Shown here: positions 23,934-37,364 of the stretch, in pieces
Layout: each line of letters begins with the position of its first letter
Position numbering within the stretch: the stretch's first letter is position 1
DNA from: a virus
Taxonomy: Duplodnaviria; Heunggongvirae; Uroviricota; Caudoviricetes
Reading direction: 5' to 3' (one strand)
DNA: 37,364 nucleotides
Virus record (IMG/VR): IMGVR_UViG_2548876853_000021
Translations under genes and position numbers: made by a program
The notes under the pieces: model-generated
The model's input: only the letters and a program-made list of their open reading frames with translations
Told to the model about the DNA's origin: nothing
Database searches by the model: none

Positions 23934-24961
23934 TGGGAAAGAGTAAGAAGAACCGCGCTGCGTCGCAGAACCAGATCCAGCATAAAAGCCAGACTTCAGC
24001 CGAAGCATTCAGCTTCGGCGATCCCATTCCAGTACTGGACCGCCGCGAACTGCTGGACTATGTGGAATGCGTACAGACAGATCGCTGGTATGAGCCGCCA
24101 GTGAGTTTTGACGGACTTGCGCGAACCTTCCGCGCTGCCGTGCATCACAGCTCACCGATTGCAGTAAAGTGCAATATTCTGACCAGCACCTATATCCCTC
24201 ATCCGTTGCTCAGCCCGCAGGCGTTTTCACGTTTTGTGCAGGACTATCTGGTATTTGGTAACGCCTACCTGGAAAAACGCACGAACCGCTTCGGTGAAGT
24301 TATCGCCCTTGAACCTGCCCTGGCAAAATACACCCGACGCGGGTTAGACCTGGATACCTACTGGTTTGTGCAATACGGCATGACCACGCAACCGTATCAG
24401 TTCACGAAAGGCAGCATTTTTCATCTGATGGAACCGGACATCAACCAGGAGATCTACGGCCTGCCCGGTTATCTTTCTGCCATTCCGTCAGCCCTGCTCA
24501 ACGAATCCGCCACGCTGTTCCGCCGCAAGTATTACATTAACGGTAGTCATGCAGGCTTCATCATGTACATGACCGATGCCGCGCAGAACCAGGAGGATGT
24601 GAACAACCTCCGCAACGCGATGAAAAGCGCCAAAGGTCCAGGCAACTTCCGCAACCTGTTTATGTACTCACCTAACGGCAAAAAAGACGGGCTTCAGATC
24701 ATCCCATTGTCAGAAGTCGCGGCGAAGGATGAATTTCTTAACATCAAGAACGTGAGTCGGGATGACATGATGGCAGCGCACCGCGTGCCGCCGCAAATGA
24801 TGGGGATTATGCCGAATAATGTTGGGGGGTTTGGGGATGTGGAGAAGGCGAGCTTGGTCTTTGTTCGTAATGAACTGATTCCTTTACAAAAAAGACTGAT
24901 GGAAGTAAATGTCTGGCTCAATGAAGAAGTGATTGTATTCAATAGATACATTTTAGAGTAA
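23930..24961 (+). CDS. Q: portal protein Q
   Basis: 343 aa; P2 gpQ size; 4-nt overlap with P. Confidence 0.9.
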   Translation: MMGKSKKNRAASQNQIQHKSQTSAEAFSFGDPIPVLDRRELLDYVECVQTDRWYEPPVSFDGLARTFRAAVHHSSPIAVKCNILTSTYIPHPLLSPQAFSRFVQDYLVFGNAYLEKRTNRFGEVIALEPALAKYTRRGLDLDTYWFVQYGMTTQPYQFTKGSIFHLMEPDINQEIYGLPGYLSAIPSALLNESATLFRRKYYINGSHAGFIMYMTDAAQNQEDVNNLRNAMKSAKGPGNFRNLFMYSPNGKKDGLQIIPLSEVAAKDEFLNIKNVSRDDMMAAHRVPPQMMGIMPNNVGGFGDVEKASLVFVRNELIPLQKRLMEVNVWLNEEVIVFNRYILE

Positions 24962-24967
24962 AAAAAT

Positions 24968-24985
24968 GGGCACCATGAGGTGCCC
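24968..24985. terminator. hairpin between convergent Q and the 474-aa NTPase gene; terminator for the minus-strand gene
   Basis: gggcacc-atga-ggtgccc; on the minus strand it is followed by TTTTTT. Confidence 0.55.
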
Positions 24986-24991
24986 AAGTTG

Positions 24992-26416
24992 TTACTTACG
25001 TGTTTCAACTATATTCAGCCCCTTATAAAGGCTTTGATGGATATATACAGAACCAGTATTTGGCAACATTAAATCAGCATCTTCACATCGGAATCTAGCC
25101 GTACCGGAATTGCCCAACCGGACACCAATCACAGAAGCATTAAATAGAGTTTTCATCAATTCACGAGAAGTATAGCGCTTACAAAGGTCAGGCGCTTTCT
25201 CTTCAATCTTACTGATGAATTCTTCTGTAGAATTATATCTATGCTGCGTCTGACGTAAAGATTCCAATAGCTCACCAAAATGAGGGTAGAGCCTTTTGTA
25301 TTCTTGTTTTAAGTCCTCAACTTTCCAAGCGCTGTACCGTTCTTCAGCTATTCTAATTATATCCTTTTTTATTTCAGAAGCATTAGCATCACAGCGTTTT
25401 TGGCATTCTTGCAAAAACTGAATAACTTCTCTTGGGCGCAAAAATGTGCGCTTCACCAAATAGTTAAACGGTGAAATACTCCCTCTCATTTCACCTTCCT
25501 CAAAAATATCATCTATAGTTATATTTTCCGGCAATCTGGCGTTCACCATATCTTTCAACAACTCTGGTGTCCAGATTATTTCTTCTTCAATTGCCCGGTG
25601 TTTATCTTTATCATCAAATTCCAGCCCTTGATAAATATCAGAGCGTAAAAATGTTACAATATGAATACCTTTGGCTCTAGTATCAGAATAACTATCATTA
25701 ATATCTTTTGTTGCCTTCAACAAGCCAATCAAAAGGCTTTTGGCATCATCCGATCCATCCCAAGAATCATCTAATCGATCAGTGGCAATTAGCACCCCAA
25801 TATCAGTACAAATTTCTTTAAGCTCGTCAAGGATGATTTTTATTATTTGAGGTGTCAATGGTGCTTGCGAAGCATCCCTATTAAACCCCACAGCATATCC
25901 GAAAGCCTCAAAATTGAATGAACTTAATCCCGAGAGTAACTTCCTTGCAGTTCCCAAAGTAGTTGGCGATATACCACCATAGTTATCAAAAACAAATTTT
26001 TTAATTCTAGCAAGGGCCTCCTGAGGTCTTTTCTCTGAAAATTGCCTACCTGACCTAATAATTTCTGCCGCAGCCTCAACAGCTATTGCAAATTTCCAAG
26101 CATTACAATGTGCCTGTTCGGGTAACAACCCTTGCTCTTGATATTGTTTTAATGCTCCCCAAGCATACTGGTCTGGGGTCATGACATTTACGATAACGTC
26201 CTGCCCATATTTTGCTCTTACCAACCTTGGGAGTTGGGTAAAGATGGATGATTTCCCAGCCCCCTTTCTTCCAAGAAAATGGGCACTATAGAAACTCAGA
26301 GCTTGCTCAACTTGAGGAGTATTGATGAAATAATCAGCCAACCTTCTATCAGCTTCAGCATCGACAGTACCAAAGTTGAGTCCCTTAACTGTAAGGCCTA
26401 ACGCATCTAACCGCAC
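24992..26416 (-). CDS. P-loop NTPase of unassigned family (accessory gene between portal and cos)
   Basis: 474 aa; Walker A GRKGAGKS (aa 49-56); Walker B-like IIKIILDE followed by DRLDD; GTG start with AAGGA Shine-Dalgarno; lower GC than flanking structural genes. Confidence 0.75.
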   Translation of the reverse strand: MRLDALGLTVKGLNFGTVDAEADRRLADYFINTPQVEQALSFYSAHFLGRKGAGKSSIFTQLPRLVRAKYGQDVIVNVMTPDQYAWGALKQYQEQGLLPEQAHCNAWKFAIAVEAAAEIIRSGRQFSEKRPQEALARIKKFVFDNYGGISPTTLGTARKLLSGLSSFNFEAFGYAVGFNRDASQAPLTPQIIKIILDELKEICTDIGVLIATDRLDDSWDGSDDAKSLLIGLLKATKDINDSYSDTRAKGIHIVTFLRSDIYQGLEFDDKDKHRAIEEEIIWTPELLKDMVNARLPENITIDDIFEEGEMRGSISPFNYLVKRTFLRPREVIQFLQECQKRCDANASEIKKDIIRIAEERYSAWKVEDLKQEYKRLYPHFGELLESLRQTQHRYNSTEEFISKIEEKAPDLCKRYTSRELMKTLFNASVIGVRLGNSGTARFRCEDADLMLPNTGSVYIHQSLYKGLNIVETRK

Positions 26417-26503
26417 GATAATTCCTTAATTGGTAAACTAAATTTGAACTTGATGCCAACAAAGATAATATCAATTTAATTAAAAAGAAAGCTGTTGCGC
26501 GCG

Positions 26504-26522
26504 CTCGTATCCCCGCCACGCC
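26504..26522. other. putative cos (cohesive end) site
   Basis: cgtatCCCCGCCACGCC resembles, as recalled from memory, the reverse complement of the 186/P2 19-nt cohesive end; lies in the only large non-coding stretch between Q and A. Confidence 0.45.
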
Positions 26523-26553
26523 TGCCCGCTTTATGTAGTAGTTTTCATGCACC

Positions 26554-26654
26554 TGCATGACATGAGCAAAAGCCCGCCAGTTCTGGCATGTCTTAGCCAA
26601 ACCGATCCTCAAACGATCATGCGAACTCATGCAGCATAGACATGCATGACATGA
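26554..26654. repeat. 12-bp direct repeat tgcatgacatga x2 (26554-26565 and 26643-26654) within a CATG-rich tract next to cos
   Basis: exact 12-mer repeated 89 bp apart. Confidence 0.5.
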
Positions 26655-26995
26655 AAATCGGTCAAACCTTGAAACCAGTCATAAATATGAGCCAGCTTAA
26701 TACACACTAAATAGCTGCGTCTAATACTGCTACACCTGCCGTTTACTGACATGTGGCATGTCGCGTAAGGACAACATACTGTAGGCCAGATACAGCAGGA
26801 TCAGGCGAAGAAAACGGCCCCACGCCTTACCCAGCAAGGGCCAAGGGCTAACCGAAAGTGGAGCATTATTCCGCGCAGTTATTTAGTGTCAGCTCTTTTG
26901 AGCTAAAATCAAGTTTCAACATGAGGGTCTGTGCAGGCTTTCTCATCCCGCTAATTTATACAGCACACCTATATGGCTATGAGTTTGTCATGCCC

Positions 26996-27027
26996 GCTAA
27001 TCCTGTTAGGATTAGCCTTGTTTTTTT
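26996..27027 (+). terminator. strong hairpin plus U-tract immediately upstream of the lipoprotein gene
   Basis: gctaatcct-gtt-aggattagc then cttgTTTTTTT; ends 18 nt before the ATG at 27045. Confidence 0.5.
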
Positions 27028-27044
27028 ACGATTGGGATAGGGAT

Positions 27045-27851
27045 ATGAAGAAATTAACTGGCGTAATTGCTTTTGCTCTGCTGCTTACTGCTTGTGACAA
27101 ACCGAAGATCGATGCATCAAGCGATCAGTCGATGAAAGAGTCCATTCAAAAAGTAAGAGAGTCCTTACCTGCAGATAAAAAAGCTCAGTTTGATGATGCA
27201 GTTAAAGTCGTTGCCTTTAGCCAAATCAACATGAGAGAGCTAATGCAGGCTGGAACGTCTTCTGGGGACGTCTACGAAACAAAAATTAAGTCAGCGTTGG
27301 AAGGTAAAACTGGTGATGAGGTTATAAATTACGCACAAACTATTCGCCTTGAGCGTGAGAAGAGAGAGAAAGAACAGGCTCTGCAAGAAATAAAAGAACT
27401 GGAAGCCAAACAAACCTCTGCAACACAGGCTGCGGAAAAAATGAAAGCCTTCAAGGTCGAACGTTCCCGTTTTTATTTCCAGAAAGAGGATTACGGCAAT
27501 GATCAGCCAATTCTGGATATTAGCGTTGAAAACGGAACAGACAAAGCGGTTGCCAGAGTATTCTTCAAAGGAGTTATTGCCAGCCCAGGAAGAAGCGTCC
27601 CTTGGTTCTCTGACGTCTTCAACTATAAAATTTCTGGAGGTCTGGAACCAGGTGAGAAAGCCAACTGGAAATTAGCCCCTAATAGATACTCTGATTGGGG
27701 AAAACTTAAAGTTCCGGCTGATGCTATATTTACCGTCACAGTCATTGGCCTTGAAGACGCAGATGGGAAATCGATCTATGGTGACGCCGAGTTTTCAGAA
27801 CGCGATGCTGACAGACTGAATCAACTTAGAGATAAGTACCTTTCTAAATAA
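27045..27851 (+). CDS. lipoprotein, function unknown (accessory)
   Basis: 268 aa from MKKLTGVIAFALLLTAC (lipobox LLTAC); charged coiled-coil middle region; about 40% GC. Confidence 0.7.
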   Translation: MKKLTGVIAFALLLTACDKPKIDASSDQSMKESIQKVRESLPADKKAQFDDAVKVVAFSQINMRELMQAGTSSGDVYETKIKSALEGKTGDEVINYAQTIRLEREKREKEQALQEIKELEAKQTSATQAAEKMKAFKVERSRFYFQKEDYGNDQPILDISVENGTDKAVARVFFKGVIASPGRSVPWFSDVFNYKISGGLEPGEKANWKLAPNRYSDWGKLKVPADAIFTVTVIGLEDADGKSIYGDAEFSERDADRLNQLRDKYLSK

Positions 27852-27959
27852 TCAAAATTAAAGCTACTTCAGCATAGTCCCTGAGAATATATATCAGGGA
27901 CTACCAAATCACGGCAGATACCCCTTAGTTAAATAATGCTAAACGCTTAGAAAGAGACC

Positions 27960-28259
27960 ATGAAACGTATAACTTTCTCCTTTACGTTAGTAGCAATCAT
28001 CATAGCCTTAGCTGGATGTGCTTTGCCAGATAAAGACGGCGACTTCGGAGCTTATGTTCATGCCTGTCAGCAATATGCATACGGAAAATCCTATGCCTTT
28101 GAGAATAGAGACTTCGCGTATAAGGTCTGTAAGGACGCGGCGAAACTGTGGAGTGAAGAAGTTCCTGGCTATATCATCAGGCAAATTCAACTACATCCTG
28201 AAATACCCAGCGAAGAAATTAAATATGCAGCCATGGCCGGCTCTTTGGGTAACAACTAA
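27960..28259 (+). CDS. small lipoprotein, function unknown (accessory)
   Basis: 99 aa; signal peptide with lipobox LAGC; Cys-containing mature part. Confidence 0.65.
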   Translation: MKRITFSFTLVAIIIALAGCALPDKDGDFGAYVHACQQYAYGKSYAFENRDFAYKVCKDAAKLWSEEVPGYIIRQIQLHPEIPSEEIKYAAMAGSLGNN

Positions 28260-28272
28260 ATCAACTTATGAG

Positions 28273-28294
28273 AAAGGGGCTTAATGCCCCTTTT
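28273..28294. terminator. hairpin between convergent small lipoprotein gene and minus-strand small ORF
   Basis: aaaggggc-ttaat-gcccctttt. Confidence 0.4.
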
Positions 28295-28326
28295 CGGTTC
28301 CCTTATCAAGTCCTAACGAAACAAGC

Positions 28327-28668: not shown

Positions 28669-31083
28669 TTAATACAGGTTCCGCCACTTATCATCTTCCT
28701 GCAAACGCTGGTTCCGATAGAAGATACGCAGGCCTGCTCCTGACGGAATACTGCCACCGCAAAGGAGCAAATCGACCTCTTTCTCGCTGCCATCAAATCC
28801 TCTGGACTTCAGTTCATAGACGAGCTGCTGACGCTGATACTCTGTAATTCGCTGTTTGTAGTCTTTACGCCGTTTCGGTTTAACCAGGCGCAATCTTGCT
28901 GCCAGTTCCCGGCGCTCTTTTTTGCTCATACTGTGCAGGTAATCGTGCAATTCCTTGTCATCCATGCAGGTAATGTCCGTTCTGGTATCCCCATCTGCTG
29001 ATTCATCTTTCTCATGTTGGTTCAAATTTTCAGCAAGGGGACAGTTATTGCCACGAGTCCAAGGGGCGCAAGCGCCCTGGTCGGCTGCCGCCTCCTGAAC
29101 GTCAACGGCTTTACGAACCATTTTCCACTTCACTGCATGAGTGCAGATCTTGCCCTCTGCAATGGGTGACCAGATGCCATAAATACGAATACCGTGATCG
29201 CCATAGGCGGTCGGCTCTTCGTTGATTTCATAAGCGGTTCTGATGAGGTGATATTTACGGGGAACCAGTACGCCGCCCTGCTTCATGATGTAGGAGGCAA
29301 AGCAACCAGCATCAGCTGCAGCCAGAATGGCATCAAGGCGCGGGTTATCCAGTACCGGCGCACCTGCTTTTTTGTCACCCTGTTGCCTTGCCGCCTGACC
29401 AGCCAACAATCGCAGTTCACGGTAAGCCTGACGCCCCGGAATGCCAAAGAAGCGGAATTGCTGAACACGATGCAGAGACGCCCAGGCATTAACGTATTCA
29501 GCGTTATCACGCAGAGATTTCCCCGTTTCCTTGCTGATCTCGCCAGCCAGACCACGCCCGTCAATGTTCTTACTGATGTATTTCGCGATATAGCTTGTTG
29601 GCGTACCTTTGCGCGGGTTAATCAACTCAGACTTAAAGCGCGGCCCAGTGTTATTGCCCAGCTCCTCGCGGTCTTCACGGATGGCAAACTTACGCAGTAA
29701 TGCAGTGATGGCGCGGCGGTCTTTTTTGCGCATAAAACACAACAGGTGCCAGTGAACTGTACCGTCATGATGCGGCTCAGCCACCCGCACGCCATACCAG
29801 CGCAATCCGGCTTTGTGCATCGCCTTACGAAATGCAGCAAACATGCCGACCAGATAATCACTACTTTGTCTTACCGTCGCATTTGTCCAGGTTGGGTTGG
29901 ACCTGCCGTTATTTAGCGTGGAATGGAAACGTGACGGACAGGTGATGGTGTAGAAAACGGCGCAGTCACCGCGCATTTCCGCGATAAGCTCCAGACCTTT
30001 AACACAGGCCATCATCTCATTGCGGCGATGCGCAGGGTTGCTGCTGCTGGCGTTTACCACATCCTCCATGTCCAGCGTGTCGCCGTCTTCGTTCACCAGT
30101 TCATGAGAACGGAAAAACTCCAGCGACTTACGGCGCTGCTCACGTTTATGCATCACGGCTTCATAGCTGACATAAGGAGATGCTTTTTTGCTGACCAGGC
30201 AGACAGCGCGCAACTGCTCTTCCCGCCATTCGCAACGCATCTTCCATAATTTCCGATACCACCAGTCGGCGCACAACATACGCGCCAGCGAACCCGGAAT
30301 GAGTTCATAGGGCACGGGTTTACGGCGGTTTCTTTTCCAGCGGAGTTGCTCAAACGCAGGTGGGATGACATCCAGACGCAGGGTTTCCGCTGCCACCTTT
30401 TCCCATGTCTTGCGGATTTCTTCTGGCTTAACATCATCGGTGGCGTACAAATCACCACAAGCGGCATCAAGACACATGCTCATATGCGCAGCGACAAGAG
30501 TAGACAGGCGTTTCACCTGATCCTGACTCATTTCAGGCAGGATCAGCAGGCCGTCCAGCCCTTCATGGCTTGCCATAAAGCGAAAAGAAGTGGATAGCTG
30601 ACTGTCGCGTACATGCTCCAGTCGTTCCAGACATGGCTTAATCGTCTCACGCAAATAGCGGGAATAAGCCTTTGGCCTGCCCAGGCTGCTGAAGTATTCA
30701 ATACGTTGCATCAGCGGCTTGCTGATATGGGAAGACTGGGCGTTTACGTCCGCCAGAATGACCATGTCTGGATTAAAACGCTGCTGCTCATGCGCCAGCT
30801 TTGCCCGGCTAATGAGCTTATCCTGCTCCATTTCGCGCTGGACAGGATCACGGGATTCATTAAAGAAATAACGCTCCCAGACCTGCTCACTCAGTGCCTC
30901 GCGGCGCAGTTGTTCCTGTTCGTTATCGGCAGCGTACAGAGTGATCAGGTTTGAAAGTGCAGACTCCGGCGCAACTTCCGCCGGATCCAGATAAGGGTTA
31001 ATGGCCTTTTTCGGGCCGTTCCATGAAAATGATGCAGCGGCCTCGTTAAAGCCGCTAGAGTTGCTCATATCGTCATGACTCAT
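28669..31083 (-). CDS. A: replication initiation protein A (rolling-circle initiator)
   Basis: 804 aa; P2/186 gpA size and position; ATGA overlap with the upstream dam stop. Confidence 0.9.
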
Positions 31084-33988: not shown

Positions 33989-34113
33989 GATGCAACATTC
34001 CTCTTTTAGCAATGATTAATCAGGATGAATACTGATCGTTTGTATTATGTGAACACTGCAAACATACGATCACATCATGAAATCGTCAAGGTAAAAGTTC
34101 ACTTGGAGTGACC
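33989..34113. promoter_or_regulatory. apl-cI intergenic switch region with candidate operator dyad
   Basis: 125-bp AT-rich region between divergent genes; inverted repeat tgatcgtttgt (34033-34043) / acatacgatca (34062-34072). Confidence 0.5.
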
Positions 34114-34677
34114 ATGAATTTGGAAAAAGGCGGTCGTGGGGCCATAGAGCGCATGGTTGAAGCCTATGGTTTCAAGACAAGACAAGCTTTGTGTGATCAT
34201 TTGGGCATTTCTAAAAGCACCTTAGCCACGCGCTATATGCGTGATTCATTCCCGGCAGAATGGGTAATCCAATGTGCACTTGAAACCGGCACGTCGCTAG
34301 AGTGGCTAACTACTGGGCAAGGTTCAAAAGAAAGTTCACAAAAAGAAAACACAAAAGAGATCGAAAGGAAGATTTTATCAAGCGGAAAACTACTTCCTGA
34401 TGGTTACTACATTTTCGACAACAACTTTTTGCCTGAAAAACTAAAAAAACCTTTTGTTGTGATCGATGGCGCATCAGAGTTTATCTGTGATTCGGATTAT
34501 GAGGATGTACGTGATGGTAAGTGGATCGTTGATATTGATGGCGAGGTTGCTATCAGGAATCTGACAAGACTGCCGGGACGTCGTCTAAATGTCGATGGCG
34601 GCAGCAGTTCCTTTGAATGCAAAATAGATGAAATTGATATCATAGGAAAAATTAGAAGCGCGATCGTCAATTATTAA
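34114..34677 (+). CDS. cI: CI immunity repressor (186 CI type)
   Basis: 187 aa from ATG with GGAG Shine-Dalgarno; N-terminal HTH; size and position as 186 CI. Confidence 0.8.
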
Positions 34678-34886: not shown

Positions 34887-34897
34887 GGTTGCTTCAT

Positions 34898-36229
34898 ATG
34901 AATAATGATATGACTTTTGAAAACAGAGATGAGTATAATAGAAAAATCATTGCTGAAAAAATAATAAGCTTACTCGAGTCCCCCTTAAAAATATCCCCTA
35001 TTGTTATCGATGGGGACTGGGGTACCGGTAAAACCGAATTTTCAAAAAAATTAGCGGCATTGATTGAAAAAAATGAATCTGGGCATAAAGTAGTATATAT
35101 TGATGCATTTACTGAAGATCATAATGATGCTCCCATACTTACTATAATGGCTGCAATAGTTGCATTATATCCAGAGAGTGAAAAGAAGGAATTAATATCA
35201 AAGGCATTACCAGCATTGAGATTTGGACTTAAAACTGTACTCAAAGCTGGCGCTGGGTGGATTTTAAAACAAAATGCAGATGATATTGCGGATGAATTCG
35301 AAGATGCTATTAAAGATGCGGCTAACTCAGCTATAGATGGTACTGTAGAAGCACTGCTTGATGATCATATTGAAGCAAAGAAACATTTGCTTGCTCTCAA
35401 GGAAGTACTTGCTGAACTAACTAGCGAAAATAAAATAACAATTATCATTGACGAACTTGACCGTTGTAAACCAAGCTTTGCCATCTCTATCATCGAAAAT
35501 ATAAAACATGTTTTTGACACTGAAAATCTTAACTTCTTGTTAGTTGCTAACATCTCACAATTGAAAGCATCAATAAATCATATTTACGGTGCAGGTGTTG
35601 ACTCAGAAAGATATCTTGATAAATTTATAAAATTCACTTACAGCCTGCCAGTGACTTTCACTGAAAACAATTACGATAAAATTTTGGCTTCGAACTCTCA
35701 TTTTAGAATGCTATGTAACGAGTCTGAAAGACTAAAAGAAATTGGAGAAAGTAGTATTCATATAGTTCAAAAATTTATCGAACTAAAAGGCTTGTCGCTA
35801 CGGGAAGTTGAAACCTTATCAAGATATCTAGAAATTTATCAAATTTTATCTCAAAATGAAATCAGCAATAAATTTATACCAGGCTATTGCTGTTATCGAA
35901 CCCTTGCAGTAATTCTTTATTCGTTTGGTCGTGAACTGGCCCTTAACTACGTAGAAGATAAAATAGATGCACAATTAATAATCAATTTCTTCGGTGTTAA
36001 TAGACTCCCATATCAGACAGATCAATATAACATCAACATCTACTATTATGCATTATTTGGTATAACTTATAAATATATGCCAGAAGGTTCTCCTTTACTT
36101 CCTTCTGAAAACGATGAAAAAAACAGATGGGCTGAAATAAGTGATTATCATATTTTAAAAGGAAATGCAGGTGTAGAAGACCCTGTTAGAATATTCAAAA
36201 ACACCTTAAAAGTTTTCTTGCTCCAATGA
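34898..36229 (+). CDS. KAP-family P-loop NTPase
   Basis: 443 aa; Walker A GDWGTGKT and Walker B IIIDELDRC typical of KAP NTPases; Shine-Dalgarno overlaps the stop of the upstream small ORF; AT-rich. Confidence 0.8.
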   Translation: MNNDMTFENRDEYNRKIIAEKIISLLESPLKISPIVIDGDWGTGKTEFSKKLAALIEKNESGHKVVYIDAFTEDHNDAPILTIMAAIVALYPESEKKELISKALPALRFGLKTVLKAGAGWILKQNADDIADEFEDAIKDAANSAIDGTVEALLDDHIEAKKHLLALKEVLAELTSENKITIIIDELDRCKPSFAISIIENIKHVFDTENLNFLLVANISQLKASINHIYGAGVDSERYLDKFIKFTYSLPVTFTENNYDKILASNSHFRMLCNESERLKEIGESSIHIVQKFIELKGLSLREVETLSRYLEIYQILSQNEISNKFIPGYCCYRTLAVILYSFGRELALNYVEDKIDAQLIINFFGVNRLPYQTDQYNINIYYYALFGITYKYMPEGSPLLPSENDEKNRWAEISDYHILKGNAGVEDPVRIFKNTLKVFLLQ

Positions 36230-36311: not shown

Positions 36312-37364
36312 ATGGCAGTACGAAAACTCAACACAGGTAAATGGATTTGTGAATGCTACCCCGCCGGGCGCAATGGGCGGCGTGTGCGTAAGCAGTTTGC
36401 AACTAAGGGTGAAGCATTGGCTTTTGAGCGTCACACGATGGAAGAAACCGGAGCAAAACCCTGGCTGGGTGAATCAGTGGATCGTCGAACACTGAAAGAC
36501 GTGGTTGAGCTATGGTTCAAACTACATGGTAAATCTCTGACGGCTGGGCAGCATGTCTATGACAAATTGCTGTTGATGGTTGACGCTCTGGGAAATCCCA
36601 TTGCAACCGATCTCACCTCTAAAATGTTTGCCCACTATCGAGATAAACGCCTGACAGGAGAGATCTACTTCAGCGAAAAATGGAAGAAAGGAGCAAGCCC
36701 GGTCACCGTTAACCTAGAGCAAAGCTATCTAAGTAGTGTTTTTAGCGAACTATCCCGCCTGGGCGAATGGTCGTATCCGAACCCACTGGAGAACATGCGA
36801 AAATTCACCATCGCAGAAAAAGAGATGGCATGGCTTACCCATGAACAGATTGTTGAATTGCTGGCTGATTGCAAACGTCAGGACCCAATTCTGGCACTGG
36901 TAGTCAAGATATGCTTAAGCACAGGCGCACGCTGGCGAGAAGCAATAAATCTTACCCGTTCACAGGTGACTAAATACCGAATTACCTTTGTCAGAACGAA
37001 GGGGAAGAAAAACAGAAGCATTCCCATCAGTAAAGAGCTTTACGAAGAGATCATGGCACTTGATGGGTTCAATTTCTTTACAGACTGCTATTTTCAATTT
37101 TTATCCGTGATGGAAAAAACGTCTATCGTGCTCCCTCGCGGTCAACTGACACACGTTCTGCGTCATACGTTTGCGGCGCATTTTATGATGTCGGGTGGAA
37201 ACATCCTGGCCTTACAAAAAATTCTCGGGCATCACGATATAAAAATGACGATGCGTTACGCACATCTGGCACCGGATCATCTGGAAACGGCGCTCCGTTT
37301 CAATCCTCTTGCAACGCTGCCAAGTGGCGACAAAGTGGCGGCAGCGGTTGGCATTACCCCGTAA
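36312..37364 (+). CDS. int: tyrosine integrase (P2-family)
   Basis: 350 aa; N-terminus resembles P2 Int; catalytic R (LSTGARWREA), H-x-x-R (HVLRHTF) and Y (MRYAHL); stop is the last codon of the window. Confidence 0.9.
   Translation: MAVRKLNTGKWICECYPAGRNGRRVRKQFATKGEALAFERHTMEETGAKPWLGESVDRRTLKDVVELWFKLHGKSLTAGQHVYDKLLLMVDALGNPIATDLTSKMFAHYRDKRLTGEIYFSEKWKKGASPVTVNLEQSYLSSVFSELSRLGEWSYPNPLENMRKFTIAEKEMAWLTHEQIVELLADCKRQDPILALVVKICLSTGARWREAINLTRSQVTKYRITFVRTKGKKNRSIPISKELYEEIMALDGFNFFTDCYFQFLSVMEKTSIVLPRGQLTHVLRHTFAAHFMMSGGNILALQKILGHHDIKMTMRYAHLAPDHLETALRFNPLATLPSGDKVAAAVGITP

Follow-up and report, generated by a model that had tools for sequence, protein, structure and literature searches.

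We describe a gene for a 474-aa P-loop NTPase (24992–26416, minus strand) within a 37,364-nt stretch of P2-like prophage DNA, the window, to whose positions all coordinates refer. On the basis of sequence comparison, it is credible and indeed quite probable that this ATPase is a prophage-borne, stand-alone candidate defence gene of the Sll1717/DS-41 family, and the best explanation overall, which we favour with a little more reserve, is that of a single-gene accessory defence cassette in the portal-side half of the known hotspot at the cos site of P2-like prophages. The original prediction, made from the DNA alone, had placed an open reading frame (ORF) of exactly this extent, strand and length as the lone gene between the portal gene Q and cos, which we can confirm. 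It had further read the gene as plausibly encoding a defence or abortive-infection NTPase that acts on its own from an accessory site near cos, and this proposal now appears supported from several sides: by the other cargo of the slot, by the rarity of the gene, by the family shared with DS-41 and by the lack of a partner gene.

Family membership and relationship to DS-41

The ATPase scores 283.5 bits against the NCBIfam model NF047389 ('P-loop ATPase, Sll1717 family'; cut-off 75 bits), with residues 15–467 aligned to model positions 1–454, which is the full length of the model. RefSeq gives the Sll1717-family name to near-identical E. coli genes (99.6–99.8% DNA identity); a literature search for 'Sll1717' returned no papers. 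DS-41 ('AAA2', WP_033812887.1, 502 aa) is a single-gene anti-phage system validated in the DefensePredictor study (PMC13092281), the supplement of which reports that this one gene lowers the plating of Bas63 by approximately 10^3.6-fold and that of Bas19 by approximately 10^2.3-fold, and links the protein to the STAND protein Avs1B by HHblits (98.1%). A search with DS-41 returns homologues that NCBI names 'P-loop ATPase, Sll1717 family', and DS-41 itself (P0271) obtains 414 bits with its dedicated equivalog model, NF053860, and with 97.6 bits also exceeds the cut-off of NF047389; genuine DS-41 relatives reach 370–414 bits on NF053860. Comparison of the two family alignments with hhalign gave a probability of 96.6% (E 5e-10) over 333 columns, pairing ATPase residues 1–362 with DS-41 residues 1–403, and the region so aligned takes in an N-terminal motif, the P-loop, a helical insertion, Walker B and the lid. 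When the single DS-41 sequence was compared with the ATPase profile the probability was just 26%, and BLASTP was insignificant: the relationship becomes clear only with the DS-41 family profile. On this profile comparison, a single family comprises two branches, that of the ATPase and that of DS-41, which differ in their winged-helix ends.

The likeness extends to organisation, in that both are single genes for proteins of approximately 470–500 aa that pass the Sll1717 model, exhibit no recognisable effector domain and share one order of motifs (N-terminal motif, GxxGAGKS, helical insertion, D-[KR]-L-D-[DE] and [RS]PRE[VL]I). Both are also singletons inserted among unrelated genes, although at different places: a close DS-41 relative (P0276, 86% identical) stands alone between hyc and hyp genes, whilst the ATPase gene lies in the P2 hotspot. 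Nothing linked the protein to ATPases of morphogenesis or housekeeping, a link that would have spoken against the original prediction; its NCBIfam family is that of DS-41. Searches of DefensePredictor and Rousset 2022 supplements for the name of the family, for the E. coli accessions and for the invariant motifs RTFLRPRE and DRLDDSW gave no match. Entry 52 of the Rousset 2022 table ('MarR_2/AAA_16', 23 occurrences in P2/P4 hotspots) shows a similar motif layout (FLIGRKGTGKS … VIFLDDFSEV); this single-gene hotspot occupant was considered as a relative and rejected, as only a 24-residue P-loop region is common to the two.

Predicted architecture of the ATPase

The predicted Walker A motif GRKGAGKS (residues 49–56; 26249–26272, minus strand) is present, with G49, K51, G52, G54, K55 and S56 invariant in 36 homologues. 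For Walker B, the original prediction had read 'IIKIILDE then DRLDD', of which only the second part stands: D213-R-L-D-D-S-W219 (25760–25780, minus strand) forms an invariant block, D213-x-L-D-D-S-W, that ends the predicted strand 207–212 and aligns with DKLDE of DS-41, whereas IIKIILDE (residues 191–198) is predicted to be helical, is poorly conserved and was ruled out. The most conserved block of all (conservation 0.98) is the lid motif RTFLRPREVIQF (residues 323–334; 25415–25450, minus strand), which aligns with SPRELIKL of DS-41.

An AlphaFold2 model calculated from the 36 homologues (pLDDT 85.3, pTM 0.83) resolves what had been described as a C-terminal domain of ~250 aa and unknown function into the rest of the NTPase domain, the lid, a helical linker and a winged helix. 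The modelled protein thus consists of a nucleotide-binding domain (NBD) with a conserved helical insertion of ~120 aa between strands 2 and 3, the lid, the helical linker and a C-terminal winged-helix domain (WHD; residues ~397–474; 24995–25228, minus strand) that is not alignable with DS-41. The insertion (residues 80–202) is family-specific. Two loops, SFNFEAFGYAVGF and FDDKDKHR, are strongly conserved yet modelled at low confidence, and are candidate interface or target-contact elements. Neither Pfam nor the structure model led to the recognition of an effector domain or repeats; the N-terminal 45 aa belong to the core conserved with DS-41 and not to an effector, and a maximal 19-residue hydropathy of 1.19 indicates a soluble protein without a membrane segment. 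Foldseek matched the model to archaeal Cdc6/Orc1, RdrA, BrxC and TnsC. The winged helix is charge-neutral and its best matches are regulatory NB-ARC WHDs, two observations that weaken the idea of a dedicated DNA-binding winged helix. Pfam returned nothing meaningful for the ATPase (MAD, 13.9 bits), a sequence search of the PDB yielded no relative, and the PHROGs match (phrog_13260) is to a family of unknown function. As modelled, the ATPase is a minimal STAND/ORC-type module with intact Walker A and Walker B motifs and an NB-ARC-like domain order.

Comparison with known ATPase systems

The succession of NBD, helical/lid region and winged helix is also found in STAND/NB-ARC proteins (Avs, bacterial NLR-like proteins, Apaf-1/CED-4 and plant NLRs), in the related archaeal 'Arch_ATPase' proteins SSO1545 and PAB2304, in RdrA and in BrxC. 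The kinase-2 motif 'LDDVW' of NB-ARC proteins resembles LDDSW in the Walker B region of the ATPase; criteria for STAND NTPases were reportedly set out by Leipe, Koonin and Aravind in 2004. STAND proteins carry C-terminal sensor repeats (TPR, WD40 or LRR) together with an N-terminal effector or adaptor, whereas the ATPase possesses neither and ends at its winged helix; the helical insertion between strands 2 and 3 is a further difference. Pfam profiles of STAND domains (NACHT, NB-ARC, AAA_16 and nSTAND) gave no match to the ATPase at E≤1; AAA_16 is matched at or close to its threshold by some of the homologues, and nSTAND1/3 below threshold by remote relatives.

The original prediction had set the protein apart from both P2 Old and KAP-type NTPases, and the domain searches agree on both counts. 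Old is an ABC-type ATPase (AAA_15/AAA_21) with a C-terminal TOPRIM nuclease, whilst the fold of the ATPase is of ORC/STAND type: AAA_15, AAA_21 and TOPRIM gave no match in Pfam or PADLOC, and P2 old lies across cos, which rules out an Old-like ATPase-TOPRIM protein. A KAP-family P-loop protein with a transmembrane insertion was rejected on the lack of a PF07693 match and on the low hydropathy maximum given above.

The cos site and the two slots of the hotspot

The cos site was located by alignment. The annotated cosR/cosL junction of P2 aligns to 26554→26497 of the window (76% identity over 58 bp), the 19-nt cohesive end of P2 aligns to 26522→26504 with 14 of 19 positions identical (minus-strand read GGCGTGGCGGGGATACGAG), and the annotated 'putative cos site' of phage Cartapus aligns to 26497–26554 (96.6%). 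A search of the window with the exact P2 cos pattern, allowing up to three mismatches, gave no match; the site has five mismatches. Since cos aligns to 26504–26522, the ATPase gene lies between Q and cos, and 1,542 bp separate the Q stop from cos, in agreement with the ~1.5 kb, filled by one minus-strand gene, that had been predicted. It had also been stated that the portal gene of P2 ends close to the cohesive end, and that P2 Old comprises ~586 aa; the equivalent gap in P2 is indeed 167 bp, occupied only by the tQ terminator, and Old is 586 aa long. In P2, old and tin lie on the other (cosR/gpA) side of cos and not on the portal side.

Genes old and tin of P2 are the classic examples of cos-proximal hotspot cargo. 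The ATPase cassette resembles P2 hotspot cargo in its locus, in the hypervariable, mostly defence-type content of that locus and in its low-GC foreign DNA, and the gene is on the same strand as old; it differs in occupying the portal-side sub-slot, whereas old and tin are on the gpA (cosR) side and the portal-side gap of P2 is empty. A hotspot between gpA and gpQ at the cos site of P2-like prophages was published by Rousset et al. 2022 (PMC9122126) and has been confirmed in a 2026 survey (PMC13586616). The ATPase gene falls within this definition, with the end of Q at 24961, the gene at 24992–26416, cos at 26504–26522 and gpA at 28669–31083, so that its placement is unusual only relative to P2 itself.

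BLAST comparison with relatives carrying other cargo revealed where homology breaks: portal homology stops at ~24934–24961 and homology resumes at 28326, upstream of gpA. Between these breakpoints lies a conserved cos island of 153 bp (26494–26646), which contains the cohesive-end homologue at 26504–26522 and is 88–92% identical in the loci L002–L004 regardless of their cargo. The gpA-gpQ hotspot hence comprises two variable slots with the cos island between them: a portal-side slot (24962–26493), bounded by the homology breakpoints and holding the ATPase cassette alone, and a gpA-side slot (26647–28325). The two slots swap independently, as is seen from the gpA-side cargo, which differs among prophages sharing the ATPase cassette.

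We surveyed the portal-side slot in 80 IMG/VR contigs with a portal at least 92% identical, 74 of which also contain the cos island. In these 74 phages the cos island begins between 196 bp (empty, P2-like) and 3,129 bp from the portal end, and the slot shows 40 gene arrangements with 59 protein clusters, being empty in one phage. Varied cargo at this position, a point raised with the original prediction, is therefore plainly present and consists mostly of defence genes: nine of the ten commonest alternative cargos have PADLOC matches to families established or proposed as defensive, namely AbiU, an RT-Toprim retron, PDC-S49, NsnA/PD-T4-2, PDC-M03A, PDC-M03B, ShosA and PD-T7-1, together with a weak match to PD-T7-4. 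Hotspot cargo in annotated phages includes DUF4145 (Cartapus), Abi-alpha/AIPR (Klebsiella phages and RE2010) and Hypoth_Ymh (813R9). The ATPase occupies the slot in only one of the 74 (L053) and is present in two of 5,426 complete E. coli genomes; conservation of the gene at this position, the outcome that would have counted against an accessory role, is thus not what is seen.

Two further observations concern the surroundings of cos. In the portal-side slot of the 74 related phages, 107 of 108 cargo ORFs are convergent with Q, which suggests that cassette orientation beside cos is constrained. On its cosR side, the cos island and adjoining DNA (26530–26660) exhibit dense repeats containing ATGCA/TGCAT, e.g. 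CATGTCATGCATG, GCTGCATGAG and CATGTCATGCAGGTGCATGAAAAC, and the P2 cos junction has similar TGCAT boxes; judged from the sequence, these repeats may be terminase-binding elements.

The cassette and its flanking signals

The coding sequence starts with GTG, and a ribosome-binding site, AAGGA, can be read 6 nt 5' of this codon (26427–26423). The start and the frame are sound, since homologues from many phyla align from residue 1 with 100% coverage. With a GC content of 39.6% the gene forms a trough relative to the portal, terminase and gpA genes (51–57%) and to the phage backbone (~55%): the DNA of the cassette is foreign and low in GC. Only 30 bp separate the Q stop (24961) from the ATPase stop (24992), the two genes being convergent with a common hairpin at 24967–24986; a T-run comes after this hairpin on the minus strand, which makes it the terminator of the ATPase gene and bears out the prediction that the gene has its own. 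The AT-rich upstream region that had likewise been predicted comprises the 77 bp up to the cos island (26417–26493, minus strand), which are kept together with the gene in three other loci (L005, L016 and L017). Within these, an extended -10-like element, TGATATTAT, was read by eye at 26473–26465, upstream of the gene.

Distribution, neighbours and selection

The same cassette is found at 97–99% identity in three other E. coli P2-like prophages, and copies in Klebsiella prophages show 81% DNA and 91% protein identity. Rare as the gene is (two of the 5,426 E. coli genomes, four loci in IMG/VR), an exhaustive profile search collected 4,301 clusters with an E-value of at most 1e-3, 379 of them within 1e-30, and its branch has scattered representatives in Erwinia, cyanobacteria, Verrucomicrobiota, Actinomycetota, Planctomycetota and archaea. 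Among the more distant members there are fusions to EAD7 effector-associated domains, to vWA or to a further P-loop domain, and the core regions of these proteins give matches below threshold to nSTAND1/3, ORC-CDC6-like, ATPase_2 and AAA_16. No family of neighbouring genes was seen at more than three of ~30 loci, which indicates that there is no conserved partner gene. Some loci of the family adjoin a type I restriction endonuclease, a type IV restriction endonuclease or a fused PARIS AriAB, defence-neighbour content having been resolved at three loci. Comparison with the Klebsiella and Erwinia copies gave a dN/dS of 0.03 with saturated synonymous sites (dS 1.3–1.9), and homologues are full-length except for the truncated entries P0034, P0035, P0069 and P0111; such a ratio, together with full-length homologues across phyla, marks the ORF as a genuine gene on which purifying selection acts strongly.

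Several individual loci deserve description. In L017 (NZ_JBRERE010000002.1, E. coli 100181 plasmid pE100181_149) the ATPase-bearing P2-like prophage segment is on a 150-kb circular plasmid record and not on the chromosome; the 13-kb stretch examined there contains head, terminase, portal and replication genes. In Thiohalobacter thiocyanaticus (AP018052; L010, 6900–13700) a 65%-identical homologue stands with a fused PARIS AriAB (E 1e-62), a DEAD-box helicase and DUF6338, in a cluster that interrupts a flagellar operon between a Flg_hook-domain (PF02120) gene and fliL and looks like a small defence islet. A subclade of homologues of ~600 aa (P0081, P0088, P0095, P0101, P0103 and P0108), stemming from an Actinomycetota metagenome-assembled genome and from metagenomes, carries a conserved C-terminal extension of ~120 aa with the motif …RITIELY..MM.ALP.QDLTFLNTKPTP…ARPN.IS.GR…, and this extension gave no Pfam match.

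Proposed function and alternative explanations

The ATPase most likely protects the lysogen against other phages. How it might do so can be sketched along the lines of a STAND-like switch with an oligomer as its output, a scheme that we regard as tentative and as somewhat less probable than its rejection. In the lysogen, the gene would be expressed from the weak or extended -10 promoter of the cassette itself, and the protein would rest as a closed, nucleotide-bound monomer. A phage-derived cue would then cause nucleotide exchange and, with ATP, oligomerisation; since there is neither an enzymatic effector domain nor a partner, the oligomer itself would be the output, acting through the helical insertion (residues 80–202) and the loops SFNFEAFGYAVGF and FDDKDKHR. 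It would sequester or remodel a phage or host target, so that infection is aborted or blocked, and the branch-specific winged helix would set auto-inhibition or trigger specificity. A bolder form of this scheme, to which we give distinctly less credence, is that a bare NBD-lid-winged-helix module suffices for immunity, with the ATP-driven oligomer as the weapon both in the branch of the ATPase and in DS-41. Such an oligomer could, for example, act via the helical insertion to capture a protein of phage replication or packaging, or to cover phage DNA. To our knowledge, none of the characterised ATPases of STAND, Avs, RADAR or BREX systems has been described as working in this manner.

A number of observations weigh against the assignment of the ATPase as a defence protein that acts in this manner. 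On the equivalog model of DS-41, NF053860 ('DS41_1 anti-phage protein'), the ATPase reaches 24.9 bits against a cut-off of 370, and this over the partial stretch of residues 195–371; identity between the two proteins is ~18%, and the last ~110 residues of the ATPase are unmatched by DS-41, indicative of a different C-terminal domain. Given the score on the equivalog model, the low identity and the unaligned C-terminus, the phenotype of DS-41 may not transfer to the ATPase, and the DefensePredictor paper describes no mechanism for DS-41 itself (PMC13092281). PADLOC 2023 returned nothing significant for the ATPase (only PDC-M28C at E 0.025), and most chromosomal homologues have housekeeping surroundings and are not in defence islands. 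A consensus scan found no sigma-70 -35/-10 promoter in the 77-bp upstream region, so that expression in the lysogen is no more than presumed, and the oligomeric state, the trigger and the output proposed above are conjectural, drawn as they are from analogy. Finally, RdrA and BrxC, which have the same fold, act with partner proteins, whereas the ATPase has no conserved partner gene.

This last point leads to the possibility that the ATPase is a sensor or switch whose effector is encoded elsewhere, in the host chromosome or in the prophage, as RdrA works with RdrB or BrxC within BREX. We consider this unlikely, albeit worthy of attention: the ATPase itself has no effector domain, the closest defence folds, RdrA and BrxC, function in multi-protein systems, and remote relatives bear domains that as a rule bring in partners, namely EAD7 adaptors or vWA. 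Set against this, no neighbour family occurs in more than three of the ~30 loci, and the gene moves alone in the P2-like phages of E. coli and Klebsiella and is also present in Erwinia; DS-41, moreover, protected as a single cloned gene, although its E. coli host could have supplied a partner.

Equally improbable in our estimation is an accessory gene with a role other than defence, for example countering the systems of the host or of satellites (P4), governing lysogeny or induction, or serving lysogenic conversion in some other way. The hotspot does hold cargo of this sort, e.g. DinI/Tum-like genes, and a fraction of P2 hotspot genes remains unexplained (PMC13586616). Nonetheless, most homologues of the ATPase sit in non-phage chromosomes of many phyla, archaea included, where a P2-specific role makes no sense, and both the family shared with the validated defence protein DS-41 and the overwhelmingly defence-type cargo of the same slot favour a defence gene.

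A selfish or decaying passenger, or a toxin-like addiction gene, is very improbable: the rarity of the gene (two of 5,426 E. coli genomes, four IMG/VR loci) and its horizontal movement would suit it, but purifying selection (dN/dS 0.03 with saturated synonymous sites) excludes decay, all catalytic motifs are invariant across phyla, copies are full-length save for the four truncated entries, and no antitoxin-like partner was present in the loci examined. Least probable of all, and essentially excluded, is an ORC/Cdc6-like DNA-binding ATPase that aids phage replication or cos-dependent packaging, which would explain the proximity to cos, portal and terminase and agrees with the ORC/Cdc6-like fold, but the gene is dispensable cargo: P2 and 73 of the 74 phages with near-identical portals lack it, so that morphogenesis cannot require it. 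It is moreover found alone in chromosomes that hold no phage genes, has a foreign GC content, and encodes a winged helix that is charge-neutral and NB-ARC WHD-like.

Other cargo of the prophage

The gpA-side slot (26647–28325) contains two plus-strand lipoprotein-like ORFs, 26973–27851 and 27960–28259: one encodes a DUF6694 protein (78.9 bits) with an internal MKKL...LLTAC lipobox, the other is of 99 aa with an LAGC lipobox, and their sequences are such that they could be surface or exclusion factors. In relatives this slot holds DinI, DUF4145 or other genes. A second cargo NTPase of the same prophage (34889–36229, plus strand; 446 aa) belongs to the KAP family (PF07693, 174.5 bits) and lies in a stretch of 31–39% GC between the CI repressor (34108–34677) and integrase (36312–37364) genes, an interval that is another accessory site of P2-like phages.

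Implications

Much of the framework for these findings is already known: the hotspot has been published, the family is named and in use in RefSeq, and one family member, DS-41, has been validated as a defence protein. The ATPase is not a new kind of system and it overturns nothing. What we add is modest: the assignment, from sequence, of another branch of the Sll1717/DS-41 family to the portal-side sub-slot; the division of the hotspot into two independent slots around a conserved cos island; and a model of the protein as a bare NBD-lid-WHD module. The two-slot layout around the 153-bp cos island helps to delimit cassettes in hotspot-mining pipelines. Should a defence function be confirmed, the P2 hotspot would gain one more named cargo and the DS-41/Sll1717 family a second, widely scattered branch, ranging over Enterobacterales prophages, cyanobacteria, Verrucomicrobiota, Actinomycetota and archaea; the ATPase would then also offer a small, soluble, single-protein model for STAND-type phage blocking without an effector domain, a puzzle in which the chief value of the gene would lie.

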